A stretch of DNA of 64,000 nt. It comes from a virus. Its lineage: Duplodnaviria > Caudoviricetes. The number at the start of each line of letters is the position of its first letter. Positions within the stretch are counted from its first letter, which is position 1. Below are positions 7,795-39,763 of this stretch, piece after piece. Location of the stretch: positions 32,001 to 96,000 of IMG/VR virus record IMGVR_UViG_2690316366_000001. One strand, written 5' to 3'. Made by a program: the position numbers and the translations under genes. The notes below the pieces were generated by a model. The model saw only the letters and a list, made by a program, of their open reading frames with translations, had not been told where the DNA came from and searched no databases.

Positions 7795-7855
7795 TGGGGT
7801 GGCGTTCAAGCTAACTCTCTCAGCCGAAGGGATTCTTTCCCCGCCAGCATAGGAA

Positions 7856-7921
7856 CTGGAATTATTTTCGGAATGGAATTCGGACGCCTTGTGTCCGGAA
7901 TTAAATTCCAGTAAATTCCAG
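7856..7921. promoter_or_regulatory. OR-like operator cluster between cI and cro
   Basis: CTGGAA-TTATT-TTCGGA (7856), TCGGAA-TGGAA-TTCGGA (7868), CCGGAA-TTAAA-TTCCAG (7895); same consensus as 739-796. Confidence 0.7.
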
Positions 7922-7926
7922 AAGCC

Positions 7927-8187
7927 ATGACAGATGCCTCCGCAGACACTCCGGCCGCCGATCGTCCCAAGACGGTTTCCGAAATCATCAAGTACGCCGG
8001 CGGCGCCGCGGAGCTCGCGAAGGCCTCCGATGGGGCCGTCACGATCGAGGCCGTCTACAAATGGCCCAAGATCGGCATTCCGGATCGACATTGGGGCGTG
8101 ATCCGCGGGCTTTGCAACGTCACCGCTGAGGAACTCTACGCCGCCAACGTCGCCGCGCGGACGCCCGCCGACGCCGCCAGTCGGTGA
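7927..8187 (+). CDS. cro: Cro-like HTH regulator
   Basis: IIKYAGGAAELAKA...TIEAVYKWPKIGIP; divergent from cI. Confidence 0.8.
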   Translation: MTDASADTPAADRPKTVSEIIKYAGGAAELAKASDGAVTIEAVYKWPKIGIPDRHWGVIRGLCNVTAEELYAANVAARTPADAASR

Positions 8188-8195
8188 GGGCGCCA

Positions 8196-8537
8196 TCATG
8201 ACACCCCGCCGATCACAGTCTTCAGCGTCGCGGCCATTCTCGACAACCTCGTTGCCTGGTCGATCAGTTCGGGTGTCCGGATCGCCCAGTGAGTTTCGGT
8301 CCTTCCCGAAGCGTGCAGCAACAATCGCTCCGATAGGCGGTCGAGCATGACCGCGGCACAGCTCCGGTGCACGAGCCCGGCATCGATCAGCATCTGCAGC
8401 ATCGCATCGAAGCATTCTTCCGCAATCAGCATTCGTGTTCCGGCCAGGGCGGCGCGCGCCCAGTCGTCATCTTTGTCAGGCGTCGGCAGCGCTGCCACGC
8501 TCAAATTTTGTTTGTGAAAGAAGGGAGCATTCATCAT
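8196..8537 (-). CDS. hypothetical protein antisense to the early operon
   Basis: 113-aa protein-like ORF filling the cro-cII gap. Confidence 0.45.
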   Translation of the reverse strand: MMNAPFFHKQNLSVAALPTPDKDDDWARAALAGTRMLIAEECFDAMLQMLIDAGLVHRSCAAVMLDRLSERLLLHASGRTETHWAIRTPELIDQATRLSRMAATLKTVIGGVS

Positions 8538-26137: not shown

Positions 26138-26419
26138 ATGTCGAGAGAGCCGACATCGCGCGCTGACGCGCTCCGTGCCCAGCGGGAAGCTAACTGGGAG
26201 CGGAATCAGGCACTGAAGCGCGAACTCGACGCACGCGACGCCGTAGCAGCGGCGGCCGCTGCCAAGGATGAAACGCCGGCGCCGAAGCGGGCACCGACGA
26301 AGAGGGGCAGAAGCGCGGAAGGGTCCGAAGGAGATAGCCAGCGCACTAACTCTGGATCTCTCCGATCACTCGATAGTGCTTGCGGGGTAAAACGCCGACC
26401 TCGGAACGTCCGCGGATGA
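26138..26419 (+). CDS. hypothetical protein
   Basis: GGAGG RBS; 3' end overlaps a convergent gene. Confidence 0.45.
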   Translation: MSREPTSRADALRAQREANWERNQALKRELDARDAVAAAAAAKDETPAPKRAPTKRGRSAEGSEGDSQRTNSGSLRSLDSACGVKRRPRNVRG

Positions 26420-27332
26420 ACGGACGCCACCAGTATATCCCGCTCTTGCGGACCTTGAAGTGGCCCCGAACCTCATGCTCTCGTATCTCCGCATCGGATA
26501 GGTGCTGGGCCTCGGCACTTGCGGACTGTCGGGATGAGAGTTTGATCGTTACAATCGAATGACTGAGACGCTTTGGCTTGGTGCCGGTGCGCTTCCGATT
26601 GATCTTTGAAAGGTCGGCATCGACTATGTCGATGGCATTGCGGCTGTTCAAGAGCGCAATTGCTGCGATTACTCGCTTGCTCTCGCCGACCAAATTCTCA
26701 GCTGCTGAAGCCTCTAATTGCTTTAACTGCAACGGTGGAACAGTTTTGATTAATGCACCGTAGAAACGGCAGGGGGTGGCCGACTCTAGGCTGGTCAGTG
26801 CTTTGATTGCATCCCACTCACGTTCGTTGCCGCTAAACCTCTGGACGTATTCATCGGATATCTCCCATTTGGATCGAGGCACCCAATCGGGGAATTGCCC
26901 GCTGGGACAGATAAATGAACTCAAATATGAAAGGTTCAACCGGGCGGACTCGTCGTGCAAGCCTCTCGCGACCGCAGAGGCTCGGGAGTGCAGCCAAACG
27001 TAGCTAGCCAAAATCAGCCCTTCTTCGGGCGTTTCAAGGAGCACGCCGAACTTGTCGGGCATCGGCAAGCTTTCAGTTGCCTCGCTGCGGTGAAGTGACC
27101 TGCGCTCAGACCATTCGAGCCAAACCGTTGGGAAAGGCAGTCGAACCATCGGAACCGCTGACAGCAGGCTCGACGGCTTTGCGAAAGCAACTTGGCTCAT
27201 GGCCTCGGCGGAGGTATCGCTGAATAGAAACCGCTGGGCCGTCCTGAGTTGGGTGGCAAGTTGGGTGATGGCTCCGCGAAACTGGCGATCGGCTGCAGAT
27301 CCGACATTCTCGAGAACGATATCGGCTAACAT
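26346..27332 (-). CDS. hypothetical protein with C-terminal HxVRGH...WxxPxxRG motif
   Basis: 328-aa ORF, lower GC; HEVRGHFKVRKSGIYWWRPFIRG. Confidence 0.75.
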   Translation of the reverse strand: MLADIVLENVGSAADRQFRGAITQLATQLRTAQRFLFSDTSAEAMSQVAFAKPSSLLSAVPMVRLPFPTVWLEWSERRSLHRSEATESLPMPDKFGVLLETPEEGLILASYVWLHSRASAVARGLHDESARLNLSYLSSFICPSGQFPDWVPRSKWEISDEYVQRFSGNEREWDAIKALTSLESATPCRFYGALIKTVPPLQLKQLEASAAENLVGESKRVIAAIALLNSRNAIDIVDADLSKINRKRTGTKPKRLSHSIVTIKLSSRQSASAEAQHLSDAEIREHEVRGHFKVRKSGIYWWRPFIRGRSEVGVLPRKHYRVIGEIQS

Positions 27333-27338
27333 GCGGTC

Positions 27339-27668
27339 CTACTCGCCCTGTTCGATATCGGCGTCCGCCGGCATCTGCCTCAGCTTCTGATAGGGAAATT
27401 CACCGAGATCCGGATGCAGCCGGTCGTGCTGGATCATCGCAGCCGCAGCCATGCGAGCTGTCCCGTGCGCGTTCGGCAGCGTCATCATGGTCAGCGCTAT
27501 CGGCACCCAAGTCGGGATGTCGTTCCCCCCGTTGGCCCATTTCGTGACCGTGGTAAGGTTCTGGCACCAGATCCTGGCGAATGCGGGCACGGACATGCCT
27601 TGCTTGGCCAACTCGGCCTTGAAGTCCGCGGCCGAGATCTTGCGGTGAACAAATCGGGGTGGGGACAT
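27339..27668 (-). CDS. XRE-like HTH regulator near the distal end of the leftward array
   Basis: ISAADFKAELAKQGMSVPAFARIWCQNLTTVTKWANGGNDIP. Confidence 0.75.
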   Translation of the reverse strand: MSPPRFVHRKISAADFKAELAKQGMSVPAFARIWCQNLTTVTKWANGGNDIPTWVPIALTMMTLPNAHGTARMAAAAMIQHDRLHPDLGEFPYQKLRQMPADADIEQGE

Positions 27669-27761
27669 CTGGAGATTCCTTTCCGGTTGGGCACAATCGC
27701 CCGGAATCGGCCGTAGCCGAGGGGGTAGCACAAAATCGATCGTAGCCGGGAGTCCCGGCCG

Positions 27762-28133
27762 TCAGGTGTAGTCGAGCGGATTGACCATCTGCTTGCCGAC
27801 GGTCATCACCGGCGGGATGACGCCGCCGCGCTTAATCGCTGCCAGCCATTGCGCCTCCGTTCCCGTGAAGCCTGGTGCAGCCTCCACATGATGGTCGGCC
27901 AGCCATTTGGCGAGGGCCTCGGGCGAGGCGCACGGCGGCGAAACCGGTGTGCCGGCGCTGGTGGTCTCGTATAGCTGCCAATGCGTTCGCTCCGCGGCTG
28001 GCCAGGCCGGCATGCTGCGCGCGGGATCGGGCGAGGGCGCATCCGGGCCGGACTCGAGCAGCGGGACATATCGGCCGCCGGAGTTGCGGGGGTGCTGCCA
28101 GTCAGCGGGCACTTGCCTGACGGTTCTTGACAT
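27762..28133 (-). CDS. phage hypothetical protein
   Basis: VPADWQHP...WQLYETTSAGTPVSP...PEALAKWL; GAAAGGAG RBS. Confidence 0.75.
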   Translation of the reverse strand: MSRTVRQVPADWQHPRNSGGRYVPLLESGPDAPSPDPARSMPAWPAAERTHWQLYETTSAGTPVSPPCASPEALAKWLADHHVEAAPGFTGTEAQWLAAIKRGGVIPPVMTVGKQMVNPLDYT

Positions 28134-28169
28134 AGCAATCTCCTTTCAAAATCGATCGTATCCGGGGGA

Positions 28170-28442
28170 TCAGAACAGCGAGCCTTGCGCGGGCGCCGGC
28201 GGCTCAGGTTTAAGACGTCCGAGGTGCTCGACCGTCTCGCCTATGATCTGGTCGCGATCATCATCGATCAGCAGCCAACCATCATCGCCGCCCGCTGGAT
28301 CGTAAACCACGAAGTCACCGCCCCAACGCTTGAAGATGCGTTGGGCCACCAGGCGCACGGCCGCGGGAACGTCCGTTGCGGCGTCGAACCCGGCCCGCGT
28401 CACGATCTTGAAGCCGGCCGCCGTCAGTATCTGTTCGGTCAT
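28170..28442 (-). CDS. hypothetical protein
   Basis: 90-aa ORF coupled to the upstream gene. Confidence 0.65.
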   Translation of the reverse strand: MTEQILTAAGFKIVTRAGFDAATDVPAAVRLVAQRIFKRWGGDFVVYDPAGGDDGWLLIDDDRDQIIGETVEHLGRLKPEPPAPAQGSLF

Positions 28443-28633
28443 GTTCGCTGGCCCTTCGCTCGTTCAAGGGCCGCTTGCACCTCCCAAGCCTGATAGATCG
28501 CCCCTCGGGCTTCCGTAAGCTTCTCCCGAACCTCTGGCCGCAATCGCTGGTCATTCGAGTCCATGACGCGCGTGAGGCCGTCCAGGAGCCGGTTATAGGT
28601 GTCCCAGTGGAAAGGGTGCTTGCGTGCTGTCAC
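28439..28633 (-). CDS. hypothetical protein
   Basis: GTGA/ATGA coupling on both sides. Confidence 0.6.
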   Translation of the reverse strand: MTARKHPFHWDTYNRLLDGLTRVMDSNDQRLRPEVREKLTEARGAIYQAWEVQAALERAKGQRT

Positions 28634-28941
28634 CGCCGCGCCCTCGCGGCTGCATGAACCTTGCGGGCGAGCTCGTCGCGGATCGCGCGGCCAACGTCGG
28701 AGTCCTCCATAGCGGTCAGCCAAAGGCGTTCATCGTCCTTGACGACGGCCGCCGCGGCTTCCTCCAGCGTTTTGCCGGCCATGAAGTGCGGCGCCACGCG
28801 GGCAATGAAGGTCTTTTCGTCGTCCGTCAGCTGACGGCCCGGAGCCGGCGGCGCAGCGAAGGCACCTCCGAGCGCTTCGAGGACGCCGGCGCGCGCGCCT
28901 TCAACGGGACCGGAATAGATTTCAGTCTTCTTGGCCGTCAT
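28630..28941 (-). CDS. hypothetical protein
   Basis: GGAGG RBS; start MTAKKTE. Confidence 0.65.
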   Translation of the reverse strand: MTAKKTEIYSGPVEGARAGVLEALGGAFAAPPAPGRQLTDDEKTFIARVAPHFMAGKTLEEAAAAVVKDDERLWLTAMEDSDVGRAIRDELARKVHAAARARR

Positions 28942-29024
28942 GGGTGAACCTCCGTTCAAATCGGTCGTAGCCGAGGGGGTGATGGGAAATCGATCGTAGC
29001 CGGGGAGGTGGGCGCAGCCGGGGG

Positions 29025-31385
29025 CTATCCCGGCGGCGGCCCATCGATCACGACGAGCGCTGTGTTGACCATGGTACCGGCGGCCTTGAATGACCCCGCG
29101 GGCAGAGGGCGGTATTCCACCGCCATCGGTTCGAGCTTCGCCCGCTGGCGCGGACCGTCGGCGCAGATCGCGACGAGCCGGCCACGAGGCTTCAAGAACT
29201 TCCGGCCATGCGTGATGTGCTTGATGTCGGCGCCGTTCTCAAATGGCGGGTTCATCAAGACAATGTCGAAACGCTCGGCCGGCGGGTCGAAGTCCAGGAA
29301 GTCGCCGCAGTGGACGAACGTGCCGGGGAACGCTGCGCGCAGGTGCTCCGAAAGTTTTGCGTTGATCTCGACCGCCACCACCTGCAGACCATCGGCGCAG
29401 TTGCGCGCAGCTTCGATCAGTGCGCCCGTTCCGGCGCTCGGCTCCAAGATGCGCTGCCCGGGCCGGATGTCGGCCGCCTCTGCCACGTCCGCGGCGAGTT
29501 CGCCCGATGTCGGGAAGAGCTGAGGCGCAACGACGACTTGCACGCCGCCGCCTTTCAGCATCGCCCGCATGGCCTCGAAACTATCCGCCGCCGTCGGCGC
29601 GGGCAAATCGGCCGTATCCGGGACCGGGGCGAGAACGCGCGGCCGAAGGTCCGCCGGCACGGGCTCGGCCTCGAACGGCACGCCAGCCAGTCCGCAGAAT
29701 TGCCGCCAGGCGGTCGCCTCGTCGTCGCACCAATCTGTAACGTGCTGGCCGAGGCCAACACGGAATTTGCCGAGTCCGGTGATGATCTCGGCGCCCGCGC
29801 GCTGCGCCTCCGCCTTGGCATCGCCGAGGCGCCGCGGCTCTTCCGCGGGCGCAACCGGGACCAGCGCCGCCACGGCCTCGGGCTCGTCCTGGGCCTCCCT
29901 CTCGACCGGTGCGCCGATGATCGCGCCGACCGTTGCCAGCATGGCGTCAAGATCAACCGCGGGCGGCGCGACATACTCGGCGACGAATTCGGCCGGCTCG
30001 GTTGGCTCCGGTGCTGGCGCGATCTTGGGCGGATCGACCCGCTTTGCATCCGTGATGTAAACTTGGACCTTCTTCCAGTATTCACCGGGCTTCGGCATCT
30101 GGCGGACGCGGTGCGCGCTGTGGGTCTCGGTCTCCTTCACTTTGCCGATATAGGGGAAATCCGAGAACTGCGGGCGCGCCTTCCATTCGGCCTCCGTCAT
30201 CTCGCGGAATCCTTCGCCGGGATAGTTGCAGATCGGCGGGAGCTTGGCGGCGGACTTCGCCGCGGCGACGTTCTCCGCGCTCGGCGGCCGATAATCGCTG
30301 ATGCTCTCCACGCTCCATTGCGCGCGCTTGGAGCGCGAGCCAGTCGGCGCGGTCGTCGTCATGCTGGAAACCGAACCGTTGGCGCCCTTGTTGACCTTCA
30401 GCACGGTAAGCCACTCGTCGCAGCGGCTCGTCTGCACCTGACCGCCGACCGCGAAGGCGAAGCGGTCCGCAAGCGGGTTGGCGGTCGCCTCCGCTCCGAT
30501 CTGCTCGGCCAGCATCGCCCGTTCATAGGCCAGCCGGTTGTCATAGTGCGCAATCCAGCGGGCGCGCCGAGGCCCGGAGCGCTCCAGGCTCGGAATCGCA
30601 ATCGCGGCGGCCTGCGCGGCGGTGATGACGTTCCCATCAATCGCCGACCAAAGGCCCATTGGCCCCTCATACTGCGAGGCCGGCGGGTCGCGCGGATAAT
30701 CGGCCAACGGAAACGACATCGACCAATAACCGCCGACATTGGCCACGGCCAAGCCGGCCGCGCGCTGCTTCTCGGGGTCATTGATGCCGGCGACGATTTG
30801 CCAGGCCTTCAGCTGCCTTTCGGTCTCCGCCTGCTGGCGCTCCACCTTCCGCTTGTCGGACTCAATGCCCTTGATGCGGCGATGACGCACCGCCGGCAGT
30901 TCCTTGTATTTCGCATGAGCGATTGCGCCGGCCGCGCGCGCAGTCCAATAATTCGAGGTGTCCCAGAGCCTGACCGCCTTGCGCATGTTGCTGTGTATGC
31001 GCTCTTGATCCTTGCGGGCACGCTTCTCGCTGTGGTGCCCAACCAAAATAGGCTGCCCCCCATAGAAGCGCTCGGCGATCTCATCGGACACTTTCCGCGC
31101 GCTCTCGGCTTCCGCCAAGCGCTTTTCGCTATACCCCTCGAAGCGGTCGGCGCGCTGCTCGGCGCGGTCGGTCAGCGCGGTGTCTTCGTCGCCGATCTCG
31201 CCACACATCTCAATCAGCAAGTCTTCGGCGCCGGGGCTCCAGGTTGGTTTGACGAACAGTTCTTGACGCGGCGCCCACTTGAAGCCGGCGGCCTTCACGC
31301 GCGCGTAATCCTCGGCGTCGAGCCGGTGCGCCGGATAAAGGCGCAGCTTGTTGTCATCGGGCGAATAGGTGGCGGAATGCTGCAT
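29025..31385 (-). CDS. DUF3560-domain protein fused to a class I adenine methyltransferase
   Basis: ATYSPDDNKLRLY; GQPILVGHHSEKRARKD; QLFPT, ILEPSAGTG, MNPPF. Confidence 0.88.
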   Translation of the reverse strand: MQHSATYSPDDNKLRLYPAHRLDAEDYARVKAAGFKWAPRQELFVKPTWSPGAEDLLIEMCGEIGDEDTALTDRAEQRADRFEGYSEKRLAEAESARKVSDEIAERFYGGQPILVGHHSEKRARKDQERIHSNMRKAVRLWDTSNYWTARAAGAIAHAKYKELPAVRHRRIKGIESDKRKVERQQAETERQLKAWQIVAGINDPEKQRAAGLAVANVGGYWSMSFPLADYPRDPPASQYEGPMGLWSAIDGNVITAAQAAAIAIPSLERSGPRRARWIAHYDNRLAYERAMLAEQIGAEATANPLADRFAFAVGGQVQTSRCDEWLTVLKVNKGANGSVSSMTTTAPTGSRSKRAQWSVESISDYRPPSAENVAAAKSAAKLPPICNYPGEGFREMTEAEWKARPQFSDFPYIGKVKETETHSAHRVRQMPKPGEYWKKVQVYITDAKRVDPPKIAPAPEPTEPAEFVAEYVAPPAVDLDAMLATVGAIIGAPVEREAQDEPEAVAALVPVAPAEEPRRLGDAKAEAQRAGAEIITGLGKFRVGLGQHVTDWCDDEATAWRQFCGLAGVPFEAEPVPADLRPRVLAPVPDTADLPAPTAADSFEAMRAMLKGGGVQVVVAPQLFPTSGELAADVAEAADIRPGQRILEPSAGTGALIEAARNCADGLQVVAVEINAKLSEHLRAAFPGTFVHCGDFLDFDPPAERFDIVLMNPPFENGADIKHITHGRKFLKPRGRLVAICADGPRQRAKLEPMAVEYRPLPAGSFKAAGTMVNTALVVIDGPPPG

Positions 31386-31429
31386 GTGTTTTCATCCTTT
31401 CAACTTGCGCACAATCGCGCGGGGCTGCT

Positions 31430-31459
31430 TCTCTAATTTGTGTCGGCCGAATCTGTCAA
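31430..31459 (-). promoter_or_regulatory. putative sigma70 promoter for the DUF3560-methyltransferase sub-operon
   Basis: Perfect TTGACA (31459-31454) in a spacer, followed directly by GATTC; -10 box weak. Confidence 0.5.
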
Positions 31460-31514
31460 GCGTGTTTGCAAAATCGGCCGTAGCTCGGGGGTGGAAAATC
31501 GATCGTAGCCGGGA

Positions 31515-32417
31515 CTACTGCGCAGTGCCGACGCGCAGGAGTGCCAAGGCGTGATACTCGCTGCCCTCGGCGGCCTTGGCCTTTACGAATGCCTCGGCCT
31601 CGTCGTCGCGGCTCACGCCGTCGCGGACAAATATTGAAGACTCGGCGTCCGCCTGAATCTCAAGCGTGCCGGTGTCGCTGTTCTCGAACAGGCCCCATCC
31701 TTCCGAGCAAGCGCGGTCATCCTGCCCGATGAATTGCGCCGCGGGCGCAGCCGGGAGGCCGGCGGCCGCTCGGCGATAGGCCTCGGCCGCCTCGTCAGCG
31801 TCGGAGACCGCTTCCGCAATCGTGCCGTCCTCGTCGCTGAACATGCCGCGCATCTGGTCAATCTGATGGGTGCAGGCGTCGAGCGCGCCGGCCAGGTCGC
31901 GGGCGATCTGGCGCCAGTCCTGCGCAGGCGCAACCGGGACTGTGCCGCCGACAATCTCCAATTCCTCGACCCGGAAGAAGTCGCCGCGCATTTCGCCGAC
32001 GCGCTCAAAATAGGCTTCCGCTAGCTCGTCAGGATCGGCCGGCTTGTCCTCGTCCATCCGTGCGGCCCAATTCTCGGCCGCGATCTCACGGCGCCAGGCG
32101 CGCGCCGTGTCGCTGTTAGGATAGAGGCGCGTTTCGTCGCCGTGCCGGGTTTCATGGGTAGCCACGGCGAGCGGTGGCAGCGTCACGGTCTGCTCTTCGA
32201 TGATGCAGGGGCCGTCAACGGCATCTTCCCATAGCTCGCTGATATTGTCCGCCGTCGCGGCCTCGACCGCGGCCAGGCGCTCGGGGGTCCGCTTGAGGAT
32301 GTCGCGCAGGCTCGTGCGGACATATTCCGCCGCCTCGGACTGCGTGGCGTGCACCGTGGTTTCGGTCCCGCAGTTGTCGCCCTCAGTGGTGCAAGTCCAA
32401 ATCGTGATTGTGCTCAT
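31515..32417 (-). CDS. acidic multi-segment hypothetical protein
   Basis: 300-aa ORF; GAAAGGAG RBS; Asp/Glu-rich. Confidence 0.75.
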   Translation of the reverse strand: MSTITIWTCTTEGDNCGTETTVHATQSEAAEYVRTSLRDILKRTPERLAAVEAATADNISELWEDAVDGPCIIEEQTVTLPPLAVATHETRHGDETRLYPNSDTARAWRREIAAENWAARMDEDKPADPDELAEAYFERVGEMRGDFFRVEELEIVGGTVPVAPAQDWRQIARDLAGALDACTHQIDQMRGMFSDEDGTIAEAVSDADEAAEAYRRAAAGLPAAPAAQFIGQDDRACSEGWGLFENSDTGTLEIQADAESSIFVRDGVSRDDEAEAFVKAKAAEGSEYHALALLRVGTAQ

Positions 32418-32461
32418 TGTGATGATCTCCTTTCAAAAACAACCGTAGCCAAGGGGCGGAA

Positions 32462-32812
32462 TCAGTCGCGGGCGGGGGGATTGGTGCGGGTTTCGAGGCA
32501 GCGCGCGTGGCGCTCGGCGCCCTCTACGGATTTCAGCGCGCGCGCCACGTAATCCGCTGCATTGTTGGCGTCGGCGATCCGCAGGTGATTGCGCGCGGTG
32601 CGGATCAACTGCGCGGCAAGCCGGACACGCTCCAGGCGGGAGGCCGGCGGCGTTTCCAACAGCGACAACTGCGCGTCACGCTTCTGCAGGCGCTCAATCT
32701 CGGCCAGCGCCAAGTCAGCTTGTGCGCTCGGGCTGTCGCTGTCCTCGTGCGGAACGTCAACATTCAGCGCGTCAAGAATCGAGTCGGTAAAGTCGGTGCA
32801 GGTGTAAGTCAT
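32462..32812 (-). CDS. hypothetical protein
   Basis: Motif A + GAAAGGA upstream. Confidence 0.7.
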   Translation of the reverse strand: MTYTCTDFTDSILDALNVDVPHEDSDSPSAQADLALAEIERLQKRDAQLSLLETPPASRLERVRLAAQLIRTARNHLRIADANNAADYVARALKSVEGAERHARCLETRTNPPARD

Positions 32813-32952
32813 TTGGCTTTCGTCCTTTCGTTTTACGCACTATCGCGCAGATGGTGGAGCGACCGCGGCCAGGTGCGCGCGTCATCCACCGCGCAAAATC
32901 AGCCGTAGTCGGGAGGTGCGCCGCCGGCCGGGAAATCAGCCGGCCCCGGGGG

Positions 32953-33344
32953 TTACTCGGCGAGCTCCTCCAGGGTGACGCCGTCTTCGGCCGCATACTC
33001 GGAAATCAGAGTCAGCGCCCAATCTTCCGCCGCGCCGATCATTTCGCCGTCGCCGCCGCCGTGTTTCGAGTTGACCCGGGCGCATGCGTCCGCGGTCCAT
33101 CGTTCAAGGCCGGGAACGTCGCCGAAAAAGTCGCGCGCGCGTTCCAAAACGGATTCCTCCGACAAGCACGCGAGGCCGTAAATCCCGGCGATGTGCTCGT
33201 CAATCCGTCATCGCGGGTTGAGCGCTGGCGCGCGTAGCGCCAGGCTACGCCGTAGCGTTGCAGCGCGGAGCGGACGCGCCATCGATACTTTGAAGCCTCG
33301 TTAACGAGCGTGGCGAGCGGCGAGCGGGGCAAGGTGAGATGCAT
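32953..33344 (-). pseudogene. frameshifted hypothetical gene (apparent 1-nt deletion near 33207)
   Basis: MHLTLPR...RSTRDD continues as IDEHIAGIYGLACLSEESV in another frame; span 392 nt. Confidence 0.55.
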
Positions 33345-33391
33345 AACGGTTCCTTTGTTCTGTGATGGGAGATCGGCCGGCGACGGGACTG

Positions 33392-33670
33392 TTAGCAATT
33401 CACTTCGTGAAAGCCGCGCGCACCGTTCAAGACCTTGAAGCCCGGCGGGGAACGATCGCCCTTGCCAATCCGCATAGTGGCAACCGCCGGCTTTCCCGTT
33501 GCCGCCAGGTCCGCGCAGTAGTCCGCGAATGCCTTTTCTGCATCGGCCGCGCGCTTGATCTCGACTTCGCGCCGTGGGAGCGGGCTTTTGTCCTCTCCGA
33601 TGCAAAGCGCCACGCTAACGAATGCGCCGTTACGTTCCGCCGCGTAGCTATTCAAGATCAGTTTTGCCAT
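33392..33670 (-). CDS. hypothetical protein
   Basis: Motif A + GAAAGGAG; start MAKLILNS. Confidence 0.7.
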   Translation of the reverse strand: MAKLILNSYAAERNGAFVSVALCIGEDKSPLPRREVEIKRAADAEKAFADYCADLAATGKPAVATMRIGKGDRSPPGFKVLNGARGFHEVNC

Positions 33671-33756
33671 GTCGTTTAACTCCTTTCGAATTGCGCACCA
33701 TTGCGCCGAAAAAATCGGCCTAGCCGACGGATTGGGGAAATCGGCCGCAACCGGGA

Positions 33757-34170
33757 CTAGGCCGCGGCGACTTGCTCGGCCGGCTTTTCGTCGGTCTGCG
33801 AAACGTCGAAAACCGGGACCAGGATAAACCGCACCGACTCCGCCACGGCCTCGGCTGCGGCGCCGTCCGCGCTCGGAGCCGCTGAGGCCTCGGCCGTTGC
33901 GCGCCGGCCGGACGGCGCAAAGATGTAGATTGCGGACTCGCCTTTGCGGACCGCGCGGCCGGCGGCAAGCCATTGATTGAAGCCGCCCAGCATGGTTGCG
34001 CCTTCGCATTGCATCGCCGCCAGCATGTGATTTTTGCCGGATATCGGCCGCGCGTCCGCGGTGAGGATCGGCGCGCGCTGCAGCCAAAGCGCCTTCTGCT
34101 CTTCCGTCATGTTGGCAATCTGGCGCGCCAGCTGCGCGGCCTTTTCTTTGTTGGGATTCGGTTTCCGCAT
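33757..34170 (-). CDS. ArdC-like N-terminal ssDNA-binding domain protein
   Basis: GFNQWLAAGRAVRKGESAIYIFAP...FILVPVFDVSQT. Confidence 0.82.
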   Translation of the reverse strand: MRKPNPNKEKAAQLARQIANMTEEQKALWLQRAPILTADARPISGKNHMLAAMQCEGATMLGGFNQWLAAGRAVRKGESAIYIFAPSGRRATAEASAAPSADGAAAEAVAESVRFILVPVFDVSQTDEKPAEQVAAA

Positions 34171-34240
34171 GGTCTGTTTTCCTTTCCGGTTGCGCACAAT
34201 CGCGCGTGTTGCATTCCGTGAGGCCGAGGCGCGCCGCTTC

Positions 34241-34438
34241 TTAGTGCAGTTCCCAGGCGCGCAATTCGACGCCTGAACGCTTGCCGCGCTTGAATTCGTC
34301 GCAGCGGCGCGCGTATTCCTCGGCCTCGGCGGCAATATCAAACCGCCGCGATAGTTCGCCCCAATTGTTGAATTCGCAGCGATCAACCAGGCGAAACTTT
34401 GCGCCATCGGGCAAGATATCGAATCCATAGGCTCGCAT
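34241..34438 (-). CDS. hypothetical protein
   Basis: 65-aa ORF with GGAG RBS. Confidence 0.55.
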   Translation of the reverse strand: MRAYGFDILPDGAKFRLVDRCEFNNWGELSRRFDIAAEAEEYARRCDEFKRGKRSGVELRAWELH

Positions 34439-34453
34439 TGCTGGCGACTCCGA

Positions 34454-35551
34454 CTAGCTGGCGCGGATCGCGCAGAGAGGCGCAACCGGGAGGGATGGCC
34501 GAGGCGCGCCGAGCGATGACGAGGCCAGGAAGCGCGCGGCGCGGGAAGGCGCAACCGGGATAGGGGCCGCGGAGTTGGGCGCGGGCGCAACCGGGAGGGA
34601 ATCGGCCGTATCCGGGAGGGAGGCCGCCGCGGTTTCGACGCCGGCGGAATTGTCTGCGACAAGCCGCAACCGCGGCGCCTCGGCCTCGGCCTTGGCTGCA
34701 GCTGCGCGCGCCTCGGCCTCTTGCTCGGCGCGCCGGCCGGCCTCGGCCTCGGCCTTTGCCGCGGCTTTGGCCTCGGCCTCGGCCGCGCGAACGATGGCGC
34801 GGCGCCGCGCTTCAATTTCCAGCCATGCCATACCGCCGAGGCGCGACCGATAGTCTGCAATCTGCGCGCCGAGCTCGGCCGCGCGTTCCTCGTCGGCGCC
34901 GGCCAAAATCTCGGCCTCGGCCGAGGCAATGAGGTAGTGCCCGCGGTAGAAGTCGGCGCGCGTCAACCCGCCGGCCTCGGCGGTTTCCGGCAAGGCCGAG
35001 GCCTCGGCGGAAAGTGCGACATGATCGAAACGGCCGCGGCGATATTCGGCCGTCCGCGCGTTGCATTCCTCGGCCGGATATTCGGCGCCGGTAGCGTCAC
35101 AGATGGCGGAAATGATGGACGGGACCGCGACACAATCGGAACCGATGGCCGAGGCTTTCCCGAATTCCCGCGCGATCCGCGCGCGGTAGAAGGCAAAGGC
35201 AACACGCAAGCCGCGGCCGATATTGACCGGCTTGCCAGGCAGTGAAACCGCTGGCGCGCGTACCACGGCGCCGCATGCGAACGTCACAACGATGATAGGT
35301 GACTTGCCTAGCTTTTTCGTCGCGCTTGCAGGAATGACGTAGTCCGCCCATGGATCCGCCGCGCCGTCCGGGATCTTGGCCGCGCCGGATCCAGCTTTCT
35401 GCGCCGGCAATGCGAGGCGCAGCAAATCGGCAATGCCGCGCCAGTTCGCGCCGTCGGGATTCGCGGTCGCGTTGTCATAGGCGAGGATCGCCAGCGCGCG
35501 CCGTTCCGTTGCCTTTGCGGCCTTGGCCGCGATCAAATCAACTTGTTGCAT
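34454..35551 (-). CDS. Ala-rich hypothetical protein with AEAEA helix and PVAP tail
   Basis: Motif A + GAAAGGA; start MQQVDL; 365 aa. Confidence 0.7.
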   Translation of the reverse strand: MQQVDLIAAKAAKATERRALAILAYDNATANPDGANWRGIADLLRLALPAQKAGSGAAKIPDGAADPWADYVIPASATKKLGKSPIIVVTFACGAVVRAPAVSLPGKPVNIGRGLRVAFAFYRARIAREFGKASAIGSDCVAVPSIISAICDATGAEYPAEECNARTAEYRRGRFDHVALSAEASALPETAEAGGLTRADFYRGHYLIASAEAEILAGADEERAAELGAQIADYRSRLGGMAWLEIEARRRAIVRAAEAEAKAAAKAEAEAGRRAEQEAEARAAAAKAEAEAPRLRLVADNSAGVETAAASLPDTADSLPVAPAPNSAAPIPVAPSRAARFLASSSLGAPRPSLPVAPLCAIRAS

Positions 35552-35615
35552 GGTCCATTGTCCTTTCTGATTTGCGCACGATTGCGCCGAGAATTGAGGG
35601 AAGGCCGAGGCCAGG

Positions 35616-35914
35616 TTAGGCCGTAGCTTTGGCGCGGCGCCGCGCGTCAATCGCGGCGCGTATCTCTTTCTTGAACCGGGGCGCATAACGGCCGTTGAAT
35701 GCGCGCAATTCAGAAAAGGCGATATCGGCCGCGGCCTTGGCAATCCGGTATCGCGGATCGAATTTAATTCGGTCCGGAGTCAGTCCCATCGGACCGCGCG
35801 CCGGAATCCCATTTCGGCCGCAAGGCCTTCTGTCACGGCGCCGAGGCGCGCGCCGGCCTCTTTCATCCGATTATCCAACTCGGCCGCGGCGGCTTGGAAT
35901 GCTGCAAAATCCAT
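35616..35914 (-). pseudogene. frameshifted small gene (apparent 1-nt deletion near 35808)
   Basis: MDFAAFQAAAAELDNRMKE...EMG joins IPARGPMGLTPDRIKFDPRYRIAK...FKKEIRAA in another frame; span 299 nt. Confidence 0.55.
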
Positions 35915-35922
35915 CGGTGCAC

Positions 35923-36111
35923 CTAGACGCTTTCGTCAAAGCGCGCGGCCTCAAAGTCGCGGCTTGCCTGTTCTGCCTCGGCGCCGGTAAGCATGCGGCG
36001 GCTTGTCGGATAATAGAACGCGCGCGTTCCGACCGGGATGAAATGCCCGTTGCGGTCATTGGCCGGATATTTGGTAATGATCCATCGCGGATCGCCGCCA
36101 TAGCGTGCCAT
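35923..36111 (-). CDS. hypothetical protein
   Basis: Motif A + GGAAAGGA; start MARYGGDPRW. Confidence 0.7.
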   Translation of the reverse strand: MARYGGDPRWIITKYPANDRNGHFIPVGTRAFYYPTSRRMLTGAEAEQASRDFEAARFDESV

Positions 36112-36169
36112 TGTAGTCTGTCCTTTCCAGTTTGCGCACAATCGCGCGAATGAATTCGACGGCGCCGGC

Positions 36170-36508
36170 CTAGTAACCTGCGGCCTCGGCGGAATAGTCG
36201 CGCTGGCCAGTCTCGGCGATTTGCCAGTCCGGAAAGCGCGCGCCGTTTTCGGTATCGTTGTACCCCGCCGAGAGCCTATCGGCCGCGCAGCTGCAAACGC
36301 CATCGCGGGTTATGCGTCCATCGCAGTCCGCGCCATCGTTGCACCATTCGTTAGTCACGGTTTGCCCGTCGAAAGAAAAGATATTTGACTCGCGCGTCCA
36401 TCCTTCGTCCGTTCTGGCGCCGTGCGAATGGTGCAACGTTTGGCCAGTCCGCAACGCGATACGGACAAGGCCGGATTTGTGATAGTGCCAAAAGCGCGCT
36501 GTTTTCAT
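36170..36508 (-). CDS. hypothetical protein
   Basis: TDEGW...DGADCDGR...QRDYSAEAAGY. Confidence 0.7.
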   Translation of the reverse strand: MKTARFWHYHKSGLVRIALRTGQTLHHSHGARTDEGWTRESNIFSFDGQTVTNEWCNDGADCDGRITRDGVCSCAADRLSAGYNDTENGARFPDWQIAETGQRDYSAEAAGY

Positions 36509-36521
36509 GGTGCGGTATCCC

Positions 36522-36851
36522 TTACGGAAGGCGGTTGAAAACGGAATGATAGGCCGAGGCCTCGGCGATGCATTCCCGCGCGGCCTCCAGATTGCGAGCG
36601 CGGCTCATGGGCGAGAGTTTCGCCGCGCGCCGATAGTAAGCCGCCCAGTGCAAAGCCTCGGCCGCAAGCGCGCGGCGCGGCCGGCAAGATAGGCGAGAGG
36701 TACGCAAGGCAACCGGACCGGCCGCGCGTTCTGCGCGCGCCGTGAATTCGATTCCGTTACAGACAATCCAGAACGTTGCCACGTTGTGGCGCCGGACGCG
36801 CGCCTCGGCGCGTAGCGCGGAAATGGTGCGGCGGTATGCATCGCGATTCAT
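36522..36851 (-). CDS. hypothetical protein
   Basis: ATGA-coupled to the upstream gene. Confidence 0.6.
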   Translation of the reverse strand: MNRDAYRRTISALRAEARVRRHNVATFWIVCNGIEFTARAERAAGPVALRTSRLSCRPRRALAAEALHWAAYYRRAAKLSPMSRARNLEAARECIAEASAYHSVFNRLP

Positions 36852-37252
36852 GCTGCGCGCTCCAGTTCGCAAGCCGCGGTCCATCCGGTTGCGCGATCAT
36901 AGGAGGCCGCGCGCGCGATCATTGGCGGCTTGCGCAATTCGTCATCCGGCGGAATCACGCCATAGCGTTCCGGCGCAGCGTCAAGTTTCGCCATGGCTGC
37001 AGCATGCTCGGCCGCGCGCCACACATTGAAGGCCGCGACGATATGCGCCGGTAGCGGTTCAGCGTATCGGACAAGCATGCCGATTCCGGTCCGCATGGCG
37101 CGGCGGACGTCATCGCCATTTGCTATCGATAGCTCATAGTCAGAAACGGAATGACGGATGGAAACTTCATAGCTGCCGGTTTCATCTGTCACGCGATAGT
37201 AAACGGTCCCCATGTAGGAACACGTCCAAGCGAATTGCGGTTTGCGGTTCAT
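36848..37252 (-). CDS. hypothetical protein
   Basis: Motif A + GAAAAAGG; start MNRKPQF. Confidence 0.7.
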   Translation of the reverse strand: MNRKPQFAWTCSYMGTVYYRVTDETGSYEVSIRHSVSDYELSIANGDDVRRAMRTGIGMLVRYAEPLPAHIVAAFNVWRAAEHAAAMAKLDAAPERYGVIPPDDELRKPPMIARAASYDRATGWTAACELERAA

Positions 37253-37290
37253 GGTCGAAAGCCTTTTTCGATTGCGCACAATCGCGCGGG

Positions 37291-37533
37291 TTAGTTGGCC
37301 AGGTTCCTAGCTTCACGGTTGAGCGCGGAAACCTCGCGACGAAACGCCGTGATTCCCTTTTCTCCGATATCCAACTTTCCGCCGGTCGGAGTCGGCAGAT
37401 ATCCGACATAACCGCGAATGTTGAAATACAGCTGGCCAGTCCGCGCGCCGTTCAAGAGAACGTCATAGCGCGGCGTCTTTTCCAGCGTTTGGCAACCGCG
37501 GCGGGTTTCCTGCAATTCCAATTTCCAAGGCAT
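37291..37533 (-). CDS. hypothetical protein
   Basis: Motif A + GAAAAGGA. Confidence 0.7.
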   Translation of the reverse strand: MPWKLELQETRRGCQTLEKTPRYDVLLNGARTGQLYFNIRGYVGYLPTPTGGKLDIGEKGITAFRREVSALNREARNLAN

Positions 37534-37626
37534 TGGCCGTTGTCCTTTTCGAGTTTGCGCACAATCGCGCTTTGGTCCGCTTTGGCGTTCCGTTGTACGG
37601 CGCGCGCGGCGCCGTACAGGGGAAAG

Positions 37627-37938
37627 TCAGAAGGCGGCTTGATTGGGCGGCTTAGGCAATCCGGAAAGCGCGCTTAACGTTTGCGCAACAGACTGCGCGG
37701 CCTCGGCCGTTGGGCAATCGGTAATTGCTTCGCAACCGCCGGCTTTGAGATGGGCGTAAACGGTCCAAAACTCGGCCTCGGAATCCGGGATTCCGCCATT
37801 GGTGAAAGTGAACCCGGTTTCGTCCGTTTCCGTGTTGCATCCGCCGACTTCAAGCCAATCAAATGGCGACCAATCCGGCGCCGTGTTACCAGTGCAGCAA
37901 TTGAAATAGACGGCGCCGTCAAGTGACACTGCAGGCAT
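37627..37938 (-). CDS. acidic hypothetical protein
   Basis: GAGGAG RBS; LEVGGC...AEFWTVYAH. Confidence 0.7.
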   Translation of the reverse strand: MPAVSLDGAVYFNCCTGNTAPDWSPFDWLEVGGCNTETDETGFTFTNGGIPDSEAEFWTVYAHLKAGGCEAITDCPTAEAAQSVAQTLSALSGLPKPPNQAAF

Positions 37939-37950
37939 TGCCCTAACTCC

Positions 37951-38055
37951 TCAAAGGCAAGAATTCAGAAAAGCACGCTTGCCATTGCGGTCCGCGGCGC
38001 GCCGAGTCCGCTTGTCCATCGGCCGGCGCTCGGAATCATGCTTGCGATACTTCAT
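37951..38055 (-). CDS. 34-aa basic peptide
   Basis: Motif A + GGAAAAGGA; MKYRKHDSERRPMDKRTRRAADRNGKRAFLNSCL. Confidence 0.55.
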   Translation of the reverse strand: MKYRKHDSERRPMDKRTRRAADRNGKRAFLNSCL

Positions 38056-38147
38056 AGCTCGTTTTCCTTTTCCAGTTTGCGCACAATTGCGCGGTTTCGG
38101 CGGTTTGTCGGTTATGCCGTGACGTGCACGGCATAGGCTGCAAACCG

Positions 38148-38456
38148 TTAGCGGCGATCCTGCAGCGCGCTGGCGATGGTATCGCCAAAGCCTAACAGGA
38201 TCGAAACGGAATCCGATTGGGCCAGGTCGGCGCCAGTTTCGCAACGAATGACGGCCGGCGCGGTCCCGCGCCATTCGCGGCGAATGATCGAATTTGCGAA
38301 ACGATGGTGCGCATAGTCGGGATTCGATAGGAGCACGGCGCAATGTGCTGCGCGCTGCATTGTCCGCCTATCAGCTGCAGCCATCCAAGCCATATCGAAT
38401 TCGTCGCGCAGTGCATGCCGCGCCGCGTCCAGTGCTACAGGGTTTCCGATTTGCAT
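38148..38456 (-). CDS. hypothetical protein
   Basis: GAGGAG RBS; start MQIGNP. Confidence 0.6.
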   Translation of the reverse strand: MQIGNPVALDAARHALRDEFDMAWMAAADRRTMQRAAHCAVLLSNPDYAHHRFANSIIRREWRGTAPAVIRCETGADLAQSDSVSILLGFGDTIASALQDRR

Positions 38457-38469
38457 TGTTGCGCGCTCC

Positions 38470-38655
38470 TCAATTCGCGATTGCGAGCGCAAGCCGCGCG
38501 GTGCGGATATGGCCGAGGCGGTCCGCTGGAATGGTGCGATCGGCCGAGGCCAGGGTTTCGGCATTGGACACAAGCCGCAATGCGAGTGTGAGGTTTCCGA
38601 GGCGGATCGCCGCGGCCGCATGATGCAACAGGCTTCTAACGGTTGAGTTTGTCAC
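38470..38655 (-). CDS. hypothetical protein
   Basis: Motif A + GAAGG; GTG start. Confidence 0.55.
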   Translation of the reverse strand: MTNSTVRSLLHHAAAAIRLGNLTLALRLVSNAETLASADRTIPADRLGHIRTARLALAIAN

Positions 38656-38706
38656 TGCTCTTGCCTTCAAGTTTGCGCACAATCGCGCGGGTTGAGCCGG
38701 ACCGGG

Positions 38707-38880
38707 CTAGCGGCGCGGCGGACTGGAACGGCGCGCGCGGCGCCGGATCATGAGGCGCCGAGGCTTTGCCGGCGCGTAAAGGAAGGGAGCTAGGCCAGCC
38801 CAGCAAAGGGTATAGATCGCCGCAACAATCAAACCGGCAACCGGTGGGTTAGCTGCGCAAAGGGAAAGGAAGGCGTGCAC
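38707..38880 (-). CDS. small membrane protein
   Basis: VAGLIVAAIYTLCWAGLAPFLY transmembrane segment plus basic tail. Confidence 0.45.
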   Translation of the reverse strand: MHAFLSLCAANPPVAGLIVAAIYTLCWAGLAPFLYAPAKPRRLMIRRRARRSSPPRR

Positions 38881-38890
38881 GGCGCGGCCC

Positions 38891-39127
38891 CTAAGCATTC
38901 GGCCGCGATTGGTCGGCGGACACTTCGCACGATATGACGCGAAAGCACGCAATGCCTTTGGCGTTCAATTCGCGATACTTGGCCAACGAAATACGCTCGG
39001 CAAAGCGCGCGCGGTCTTTGGCACGGTCGCAGGCATGATCAGCGGAATGGGAAAAGAGGCGGATATGATAATCGCAACCGGTTGCGATACGGCGGACAGT
39101 GACTTGATAGGCGAGGGTCTTTGCCAT
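38891..39127 (-). CDS. hypothetical protein, first gene after the array promoter
   Basis: Motif A + AAAAGG; start MAKTLAY. Confidence 0.65.
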   Translation of the reverse strand: MAKTLAYQVTVRRIATGCDYHIRLFSHSADHACDRAKDRARFAERISLAKYRELNAKGIACFRVISCEVSADQSRPNA

Positions 39128-39174
39128 GTCGGCGGCCTTTTGAGTTGCGCACAATCGCGCTTTCCGTTCGCCGC

Positions 39175-39203
39175 ACATGCCTATAAAGCGCGGCGCGTGT
39201 CAA
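39175..39203 (-). promoter_or_regulatory. putative leftward promoter of the gene array
   Basis: TTGACA (39203-39198) preceded by an AT-rich segment, about 40 nt before the first motif A. Confidence 0.55.
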
Positions 39204-39276
39204 TCCCTTAATTCGCTATTCTGTGAAAAAAGATAGCGGTTAGACCGGCCGGACTCACACTAGAGGGAATTCCGGC

Positions 39277-39510
39277 CTATTCCTGCAGAATGGCGTTTAT
39301 CCGCCCGAGGCGAAAGGCCTCTTGCATGGGTACCGCGGGCGAAAGGCCGGCCGCAACGGCGCGACACTTCAAGGCGAGTTCAGCGCTACCGCCTTCCGCG
39401 CGTACAGCCGTGACAGTGTTAGGCGAGATAAACAGCGCTGCAGCTGCGGCGCCATTGGATAGGCCTAGCTCCTCTTGCCAGGCCTTGAATTCGGCCGCGC
39501 TGATTCGCAT
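39277..39510 (-). CDS. HTH regulator at the proximal end of the array
   Basis: MRISAAEFKAWQEELGLSNGAAAAALFISPNTV. Confidence 0.7.
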   Translation of the reverse strand: MRISAAEFKAWQEELGLSNGAAAAALFISPNTVTAVRAEGGSAELALKCRAVAAGLSPAVPMQEAFRLGRINAILQE

Positions 39511-39763
39511 TGCGGCGCCGGCCGAGGCATAGGCGCGGCCTTTGCCAGCTTGCCTCGGCGCCGAGTTATCCGCCTTCGCTGCAGGCATGTGCTTTCCCTC
39601 TTGCGTGAGTCCGGAACGTTCATTGCCGGGTTACCTATCACAGAACAGGGAAAGGCCGAGGCCGCGCCGCGCCGTCATGCACCGCCGAGTAGCGGAACCG
39701 GATTTGACACTCCGACTCCGATTATGATTCAGAACAGGCATTCGGCGCATTGTCGCTGCAGCC

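Follow-up and report, generated by a model that had tools for sequence, protein, structure and literature searches.

Why does the same small hairpin stand before the ribosome-binding sites of twelve genes in one accessory block of a prophage, and what might read it? The block lies in the stretch analyzed here, a window of 64,000 nucleotides (nt) comprising bases 32001-96000 of the 108,554-bp IMG/VR provirus record IMGVR_UViG_2690316366_000001, a Bradyrhizobium prophage; coordinates of the units are window positions. The reading we favor, with somewhat less than even confidence, is an mRNA stem-loop at the ribosome-binding region that is read by a loop-specific factor for joint control. According to this reading, every independently translated cassette of a leftward accessory operon would have its ribosome-binding region bounded on the 5' side by this stem-loop, in which four to five G+C-rich pairs enclose a centre, G/A-A-U-N-G-U, that is asymmetric and fixed. 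A loop-specific factor, we infer, would bind the hairpin on the mRNA, and this binding, in whichever direction it acts, would co-control a gene set of changeable composition, at the level of translation, of mRNA stability or of both.

Hairpin copies and their distance to the ribosome-binding site

The motif, GCGCGATTGTGCGCAA, is a 16-mer. Allowing up to two mismatches, the window contains twelve copies, all on the minus strand in the sense of the hairpin and all between 27687 and 39160; seven match exactly, one has a single mismatch and four have two. The chance expectation in the window is 2.59 copies (standard deviation 1.68, largest value 8), and twelve were reached in 0 of 100 shuffles. 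Exactly the starts given in the original prediction, which rested on inspection of the letters, were recovered. It had also noticed no copy outside the block, and this holds for the whole 108,554-bp record: the same twelve are the only matches with up to two mismatches, all others having three or four, and a structure-weighted covariance model (R2), run with filters off, scores them at 29.7-40 bits, setting them apart from the next match at 17.5 bits.

On the minus strand, the window consensus reads GCGC[G/A]-A-U-N-G-UGCGC-AA. Each copy is followed by a spacer of 3-7 nt and a Shine-Dalgarno (SD) sequence of the GAAAGG, AAAAGG or GAAGG type, and the start codon (11 ATG, 1 GTG) lies 17-21 nt past the end of the motif in all twelve cases, which bears out the claim that the copies directly precede the SD. 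The stem and loop variants are likewise as described: copy 27687 has the stem GGGCG/TGCCC, copies 33691, 35572 and 38077 have A at position 5, copy 32833 ends in T and thereby has an outer G.U pair, and the loops are AUUG, AUGG, AUCG and AUAG. That the element belongs to no described family agrees with a search of Rfam 15 at gathering score, which gave no match on either strand of the window, and with our literature searches, in which no description of such a hairpin-SD element was found. A megablast of the array block against the phage collection returned no match.

An exact-match scan of viral contigs retrieved nine further proviruses with several copies. With up to two mismatches, these relatives carry 6, 9, 11, 9, 11, 8, 9, 5 and 2 copies, clustered and on one strand; two of the records have one additional two-mismatch match each on the other strand, distant from the cluster. 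The hosts are Bradyrhizobium, and the same arrays are present in contigs of B. embrapense and Bradyrhizobium sp. C9. When up to three mismatches were allowed and an SD was required, the ten proviruses together yielded 91 copies, in which 13 of the 16 motif positions are nearly fixed. Positions 3, 4, 6, 9, 11, 12 and 15 are invariant, and variation is restricted to position 5 (G in 63, A in 28), position 7 (T in 83, C in 8) and position 8, which is free. This pattern points to sequence-specific reading of the loop region. Despite differing spacer sequences, the AAGG of the SD begins 5-7 nt past the motif in 85 of the 91 copies. A C-rich tract (positions -3 to -1) lies 5' of the hairpin, with C at position -1 in 69 and at position -2 in 56 of the 91 copies; it is likewise present in the more distant proviruses G411 and G413 described below.

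Stem covariation in the clade and in wider lineages

In the clade alignment (A1, 86 distinct rows), 99.8% of 430 cells are paired. The sole two-sided stem change, C-G to G-C at pair 2-13, occurs in seven copies that all sit at one orthologous site, before the 109-aa (amino acid) helix-turn-helix (HTH)-like gene, and therefore represents one event. Thus, the double compensatory change at copy 27687, on which the original prediction had relied, is real but weak evidence. Its second argument, that wobble pairs work only on the transcribed strand, carries little weight as well. When folded with ViennaRNA, the major form has a 4-bp GCGC stem and a 6-nt loop in which the G.U closing pair is not formed, and it yields -5.3 kcal/mol whichever strand is folded; accordingly, the wobbles contribute little to strand asymmetry, with the exception of copy 32833 (-5.7 vs. 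-3.0 kcal/mol). In the Bradyrhizobium clade alone, a hairpin and a conserved duplex site are not separable.

Wider lineages were reached by scanning the collection with loop side, tail and SD fixed and the stem positions free, which detected provirus G411 with the hairpin GCCCG-AUUG-UGGGC. Scans blind to the stem sequence gave five copies in G411 (stems GCUC, GCCC three times, GCGC) and ten in G413 (GCGC three times, GCUC five times, GCCC, UGCC); G412 has two to three copies and G414 has two. An exact 14-mer scan for the GCCC variant produced 118 stretches, mostly chance singletons that were discarded, only G411 and G412 being relevant. Across lineages, the stems GCGC, GGGC, GCCC, GCUC, UGCC and AGGC are always matched by their partners, different stems are mixed within single arrays, and the asymmetric centre GAUUGU is kept. 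In G413 (locus L432, G413:C1:44000-62000, minus strand), GGAGUCCC follows every hairpin 2-4 nt before the ATG, replacing GAAAGGA; the ribosome-site part therefore varies by lineage while the loop is kept.

An alignment of 39 rows (A3) has 99.5% of 195 cells paired, with GC in 25, CG in 7 and UA in 7 rows at pair 6-15 and CG in 34 and GC in 5 rows at pair 5-16, and its covariation score was reached by 0 of 500 shuffles. As part of the A3 rows comes from a scan that demanded pairing, the fairer figure is a pairing-blind test, in which sites were defined by the core RAYNGY plus SD and start codon, and those were counted in which all four outer pairs form:

Window block: array strand 10 of 14, opposite strand 0 of 3
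G411: array strand 5 of 9, opposite strand 0 of 6
G413: array strand 10 of 14, opposite strand 0 of 4
G412: array strand 2 of 7 (P 0.011), opposite strand 1 of 7
G414: array strand 2 of 17 (P 0.06), opposite strand 0 of 8
Background of 76 unrelated loci: 19 of 781

A fixed asymmetric centre combined with variable complementary arms that are mixed in one array therefore suggests a folded single strand that is read via its loop. Most likely, the element acts in this form, as mRNA, at the ribosome-binding region. Covarying arms around a fixed asymmetric centre are the opposite of what characterizes a dimer-bound duplex operator. An RNA (or single-stranded DNA) element rather than a double-stranded DNA operator, as originally proposed, is supported, and better than by the window on its own, by lineages that keep the loop and alter the stem in matched pairs, and by the 5-7 nt spacing to the SD. 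Of the broader proposal of a shared post-transcriptional element, the folded hairpin on the transcribed strand, its tie to the SD and its array-wide occurrence stood, whereas the two arguments discussed above proved weak.

These data also bear on a duplex-DNA site, be it a repressor operator or stoperator-like roadblock that silences the block in the lysogen, or the promoter of a phage-specific polymerase or sigma factor. Stoperators are short asymmetric duplex sites with a defining sequence, to which the immunity repressor binds; a temperate phage has many of them, in one orientation, in its short intergenic gaps, and operators of this kind have copies at the repressor's own promoter. The element shares the single orientation and the many short asymmetric sites with the stoperators of Cluster A mycobacteriophages such as L5, which are mentioned in PMC3203893, and high sequence conservation in the Bradyrhizobium clade as well as HTH-like genes flanking the block would also suit a duplex site. 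However, the variable arms pair around a fixed centre and differ within one array, and the fixed distance is to the SD rather than to a promoter element. No copy lies near the S24 repressor-like gene (7060-8415) or elsewhere outside the block, no sigma-70-like promoter was called at the copies, and no RNA polymerase domain was found among about 50 window open reading frames (ORFs) scanned. Hence we regard a duplex-DNA site as highly improbable.

No canonical copy was present at 76 loci with TerL at 50-68% identity. Repeated 11-mers in loci L239, L241 and L255 were considered as analogues and rejected as iteron-like tandem repeats. In two terminase-related phage contigs (L239:2010-2113 and L241:2947-3050), five tandem copies of AAAGGGTGCAA with 22-nt spacing have an iteron-like look.

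The accessory operon and the exchange of its cassettes

The hairpins are distributed over the block as follows:

26346..39588, minus strand: leftward accessory operon of about 25 small genes with all twelve units (gene calls heuristic)
39277..39588, minus strand: first gene of the block, HTH-like, 103 aa, a candidate regulator only
39128..39160, minus strand: unit 1, first copy of the operon, GCGCG-AUUG-UGCGC-AA, AAAAGG, ATG; 78-aa gene 39127-38891
38656..38688, minus strand: unit 2, canonical stem, GAAGG, GTG; 61-aa gene 38655-38470
38056..38092, minus strand: unit 3, A-U closing pair; gene of a 34-aa Arg/Lys-rich peptide, 38055-37951
37534..37570, minus strand: unit 4, 80-aa gene 37533-37291; cassette missing in relative L050, with the junction at the hairpin
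37253..37287, minus strand: unit 5, hairpin beginning 3 nt past the upstream stop codon; 134-aa gene 37252-36848
36112..36147, minus strand: unit 6, 62-aa gene 36111-35923
35552..35587, minus strand: unit 7, A-U closing pair, loop AUCG; 365-aa gene 35551-34454
34171..34205, minus strand: unit 8, ArdC-N-domain gene 34170-33757
33671..33706, minus strand: unit 9, A-U closing pair, loop AUGG; 92-aa gene 33670-33392
32813..32848, minus strand: unit 10, loop AUAG, outer G.U pair; 116-aa gene 32812-32462
31386..31420, minus strand: unit 11, 786-aa gene with DUF3560 and SAM-methyltransferase domains, 31385-29025
27669..27702, minus strand: unit 12, compensated stem GGGCG/UGCCC; 109-aa HTH-like gene 27668-27339

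On the plus strand, the array block is preceded by a replication module at 13.7-22.2 kb (DnaN, two DNA methylases, primase, DnaB) and followed from 40841 by genes for terminase, portal, ClpP-type protease, HK97-type capsid and tape measure, so that the minus-strand block is placed between the replication and the terminase/portal/capsid modules. Its genes are nearly all without family match, the exceptions being the ArdC-N protein and the 786-aa DUF3560-methyltransferase protein. Genes of these two kinds are typical of anti-restriction regions, and the leftward operon is probably an early, anti-restriction one. The hairpin precedes twelve of the block genes; according to the heuristic gene calls, about half of the remainder start within 15 nt of the upstream stop codon, and these genes look translationally coupled.

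A promoter scan detected one promoter-like site in 15 kb, away from any copy, and none at the head of the block. A putative sigma-70 promoter before the first copy was dropped, since its spacer to TATAGG measures only 12 nt and the scan called none. A conserved TTGAC(A/G) hexamer about 33 nt upstream of unit 11 was seen by eye, without a call by the scan. The window copies have no T run 3' of the hairpin, and the arrangement of a terminator plus hairpin was rejected because terminator-like sites in the block are not enriched (21 found vs. 17.3 expected).

A second strictly polar motif, CGGCTACGRYCGATTT, has twelve minus-strand copies (up to three mismatches) at window positions 27704-34614. 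Some are located directly 5' of a hairpin copy or of an SD, and two lie inside coding sequence, at 29605 in the methyltransferase gene and at 34599 in the 365-aa gene. One form is foldable as UCGGC-UACG-GCCGA, the other forms are not.

Comparison of relatives reveals where cassettes change. At L050:5236, the upstream flank of window copy 37555 is fused to the downstream flank of copy 37272, and at L051:5903 the upstream flank of copy 37272 is fused to the downstream flank of copy 36132; cassettes were therefore lost or gained exactly between hairpins. Moreover, 16-19% of BLAST segment ends have a copy no more than 25 nt away as compared to 5% for random positions, an enrichment that is partly built in, as the conserved motif extends alignments ending nearby. 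The shared module of 16-30 nt is, as a by-product, the site of cassette exchange among relatives. Could exchange be its primary role, either through microhomology or as an attC-like folded single strand, with the closeness to the SD being secondary? The chimeric junctions and the segment ends would fit, as would the replacement of the native leader by the module in 3 of 26 orthologues of a host antitoxin gene (see below). A recombination site would, however, leave the 5-7 nt spacing to the SD and the strict coding-strand polarity unexplained. Integron attC sites, folded single strands with paired boxes that lie beside an integron integrase and attI, are far longer than the 14-16 nt of the element, of which the hairpin takes 14 nt; neither an integrase nor another dedicated recombinase was searched for. 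Altogether, we consider a primary recombination function decidedly improbable.

A repeated motif at the junctions of exchanged cassettes recalls the PeSLs (promoter-early stem-loop cassettes) of T4-type phages, composite motifs of an early promoter and a terminator stem-loop that are reported to flank small accessory genes and to mark cassette insertion, deletion and replacement (PMC2839356, PMC4122927). The element studied here has two exact chimeric junctions in common with this picture; it differs in that no promoter was called at the copies, no U tract is present and the element is tied to the SD.

Copies in host genomes, candidate readers and related systems

In two whole host genomes, strong matches are confined to the prophage arrays. 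A survey of 401 Bradyrhizobium genomes, whose tallies take in one genome marked unpublished (G027) from which no locus or sequence was used, revealed 34 genomes with a match, and 30 loci were examined. These comprise 21 stretches coding for RAIVRNPK of ABC ATPases, four arrays, four singletons and one locus without gene. The 21 coding loci (among L269-L298) were rejected as false positives: the canonical 16-mer with loop AUCG encodes RAIVRNPK, located between the signature and Walker B motifs, and thus recurs as a false positive of pattern searches. Weak matches of model R1 (27-28 bits) in host genomes were set aside as well, as they derive from another chromosomal repeat without gene start; this dispersed repeat with GCGCGACCTGCGCAATCGGAAAAGAC, found on the G010 and G011 chromosomes (L258-L263), appears to be a different family.

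The singletons are from genomes without an array, with no array protein within 10 kb. In L266 and L267, motif, SD and start are intact before a phd-like antitoxin gene next to a Doc/Fic gene; the L265 copy is flanked by genes for a Gp49/HigB-like toxin and an HTH_3 antitoxin, and L264/L283 precedes a 59-aa ORF. Adjoining the L264 hairpin on the opposite strand is a gene for a 536-aa protein with LRR and NEL (novel E3 ligase) domains (L264:7668-9278, genome G149). The phd-like antitoxin gene is present in 241 of the 401 genomes, and the hairpin-SD module replaces the stretch before its start codon in 3 of 26 leaders read (L434-L461, L267); the other leaders mostly have, close to their SD, a palindrome of the form GTTATACA-N2-TGTATAAC. 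In addition, a homologue of phd (69%) is present on a phage-array contig. For these reasons, the singletons were withdrawn as proof of a host reader: import by recombination explains them equally well.

This evidence concerns the possibility that the element is an autonomous or host-read initiation module which works without a dedicated phage regulator and gives each foreign cassette a dependable ribosome site, by insulating the SD from upstream G+C-rich structure, by protecting the 5' end after processing or by docking on the 30S platform. Such a module would account for the fixed SD spacing and for singletons that combine motif, SD and start in array-free genomes; in the orthologous pair L266/L267, moreover, 15 of 16 motif bases are kept while the flanks differ. 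A purely structural role, on the other hand, does not explain invariant loop bases and an invariant AA tail across non-homologous genes, and host genes do not use the element, as judged by four singletons among the 30 loci, which may themselves be recombination imports. Complementarity to or mimicry of 16S rRNA was not beyond chance, the best cases being a complementary stretch of 10 nt in which G.U pairs are counted and the 7-nt identity GCGCAAC. We consider an initiation module of this type rather unlikely.

If a phage factor reads the loop, as in the reading that we favor, which protein could it be? The first candidate, by analogy with the Aca1/Aca2 regulators discussed next, is the HTH-like family with the signature V..W..G..D[IV]P, because it is the only gene family found in all five hairpin-bearing lineages. 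Its member in the window is the 109-aa gene behind the variant hairpin of unit 12, of which the HTH-like gene of 103 aa that opens the block is a weak paralogue (41% over 41 aa, E 0.004). Aca1 and Aca2 of anti-CRISPR (acr-aca) operons are reported to bind hairpins in 5' untranslated regions (UTRs) that stop some 20 nt short of the start codon; such motifs have also been described between adjacent genes within anti-defence operons, they covary, and they are read by the small co-encoded regulator, which limits translation (PMC13551039). Similar features here are the hairpin geometry, with 17-21 nt to the start, the covarying stem and a transcribed 5' UTR position that we infer. HTH-like genes of 103 and 109 aa, candidate regulators only, flank the array. 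Unlike the Aca motifs, the element occurs in up to twelve copies per operon, its stem has 4-5 bp, and the loop rather than the stem is conserved. A recognized Aca protein or an acr gene was not found here, and neither was a matching inverted repeat at a promoter, for which the scan had called no site at the head of the block.

The 34-aa Arg/Lys-rich peptide of unit 3 (37951-38055, minus strand) is encoded by the best conserved small gene of the clade, present in 9 of 10 arrays, with invariant DKRTRR and GKR..LNSC and conservative substitutions; a gene of 103 aa comes next after a 12-nt gap. The peptide has no family match in Pfam, PHROGs or NCBIfam. As a universal reader it was rejected, since it was not found in the arrays of G411-G414 or in five singleton genomes (best E 0.1).

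The hairpin could instead be an element that acts during transcription, in the nascent RNA or the exposed non-template strand, and causes pausing, antitermination or coupling in a manner like boxB/N, put or ops/RfaH. RNA polymerase might be held until a ribosome loads, so that a long foreign operon is spared polarity. Such an element would have the same strand-specific covarying signature as the mRNA stem-loop, and the position just before the SD, the C-rich tract 5' of the hairpin and the conservation of the basic peptide would agree with it. boxB hairpins measure some 15 nt and have a G+C stem and a GNRA-like loop, which the arginine-rich motif of lambdoid N reads on nascent early mRNA; they occur at one or two sites per operon, with boxA as partner. 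The element described here is also a small G+C-stem hairpin, and the basic peptide occurs in one clade only. In contrast to nut or put sites, there are twelve copies per operon, and the loop is not of the GNRA-like kind. No N, Q or NusG-like protein was found among 20 array proteins scanned against PHROGs, boxA was not searched for, and the failure to find the peptide in the G411-G414 arrays and the lack of terminator enrichment also argue against this mode of action, which we judge to be quite unlikely.

A similar overall distribution is seen in the start-associated sequences (SAS) of Cluster K mycobacteriophages. They are described as present in 11-19 copies per genome, in one orientation, in the non-structural part and absent from the host, located before the starts of unrelated genes, and their function was still called unverified in 2025 (PMC3203893, PMC12699233). 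There, SAS are defined as a 13-bp unpaired asymmetric consensus that includes an AGGAG core SD and lies 3-7 bp from the start; for the associated extended repeats (ESAS), RNA pairing was not supported according to the authors (PMC3203893, PMC12699233). Copy number, single orientation (12 of 12 on the coding strand), restriction to the accessory block and strong host matches in arrays only are shared with our element. It differs by being a hairpin of 14-16 nt with compensatory changes, by an SD that is separate and located 5-7 nt downstream, by a motif end 17-21 nt rather than 3-7 bp before the start, and by its residence in an alphaproteobacterial prophage.

Several observations weigh against an mRNA stem-loop that is read by a dedicated phage factor. 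On its own, the hairpin is of marginal thermodynamic stability (-5.3 to -6.1 kcal/mol), its pair probability in a 101-nt context spans 0.03 to 0.97, and in the canonical copies a register shifted by 2 is paired almost as well (94% of the cells on A1). Support from two of the lineages, G412 (2 of 7, P 0.011) and G414 (2 of 17, P 0.06), is thin, and sequence alone cannot distinguish RNA from single-stranded DNA, be it the non-template strand or another form. Concerning the reader, the HTH-like proteins have no sequence family match in Pfam, NCBIfam or PDB, and their structural model (pLDDT 65) weakly matches XRE-type HTH proteins, with a best Foldseek E of 0.23 and Aca2 at rank 42; an HTH dimer, moreover, would be expected to read the arms, which are variable, and not the loop. 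Finally, singletons precede chromosomal toxin-antitoxin genes, and in the genomes concerned neither the 34-aa peptide nor a protein of the HTH-like kind was detected; this argues against a phage-only reader unless the singletons are spill-over from recombination.

Taken together, the hairpin-SD element has the look of a control tag, not described so far, that phage messages share. More speculatively, and in our view unlikely as a whole, it could be the address tag of an expression-and-exchange platform, in which a loop-specific RNA-binding regulator, possibly of the V..W..G..D[IV]P family, switches translation of a first-expressed anti-defence operon while cassettes plug in at the tag. If so, a captured gene would come under the switch at once, a functionally integron-like arrangement at the mRNA level. 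Repeated start-associated motifs of phage accessory genes were first described in 2011, and no function has been established for them; reading of hairpins by Aca proteins was shown only recently. The present case is experimentally tractable: the hairpin measures 14 nt, its loop is fixed while its stem covaries freely, an operon has up to twelve copies, and a single array offers natural variants of the stem. The element stands before anti-restriction-type genes in a prophage of a symbiont genus that matters to agriculture. Should a reader protein exist, the tagged counter-defence genes of the phage would constitute a translational regulon; should there be none, the module would be a ribosome-site design that can be carried over to G+C-rich bacteria. 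In both cases, the element explains where these prophages exchange cassettes and merits an RNA family model.

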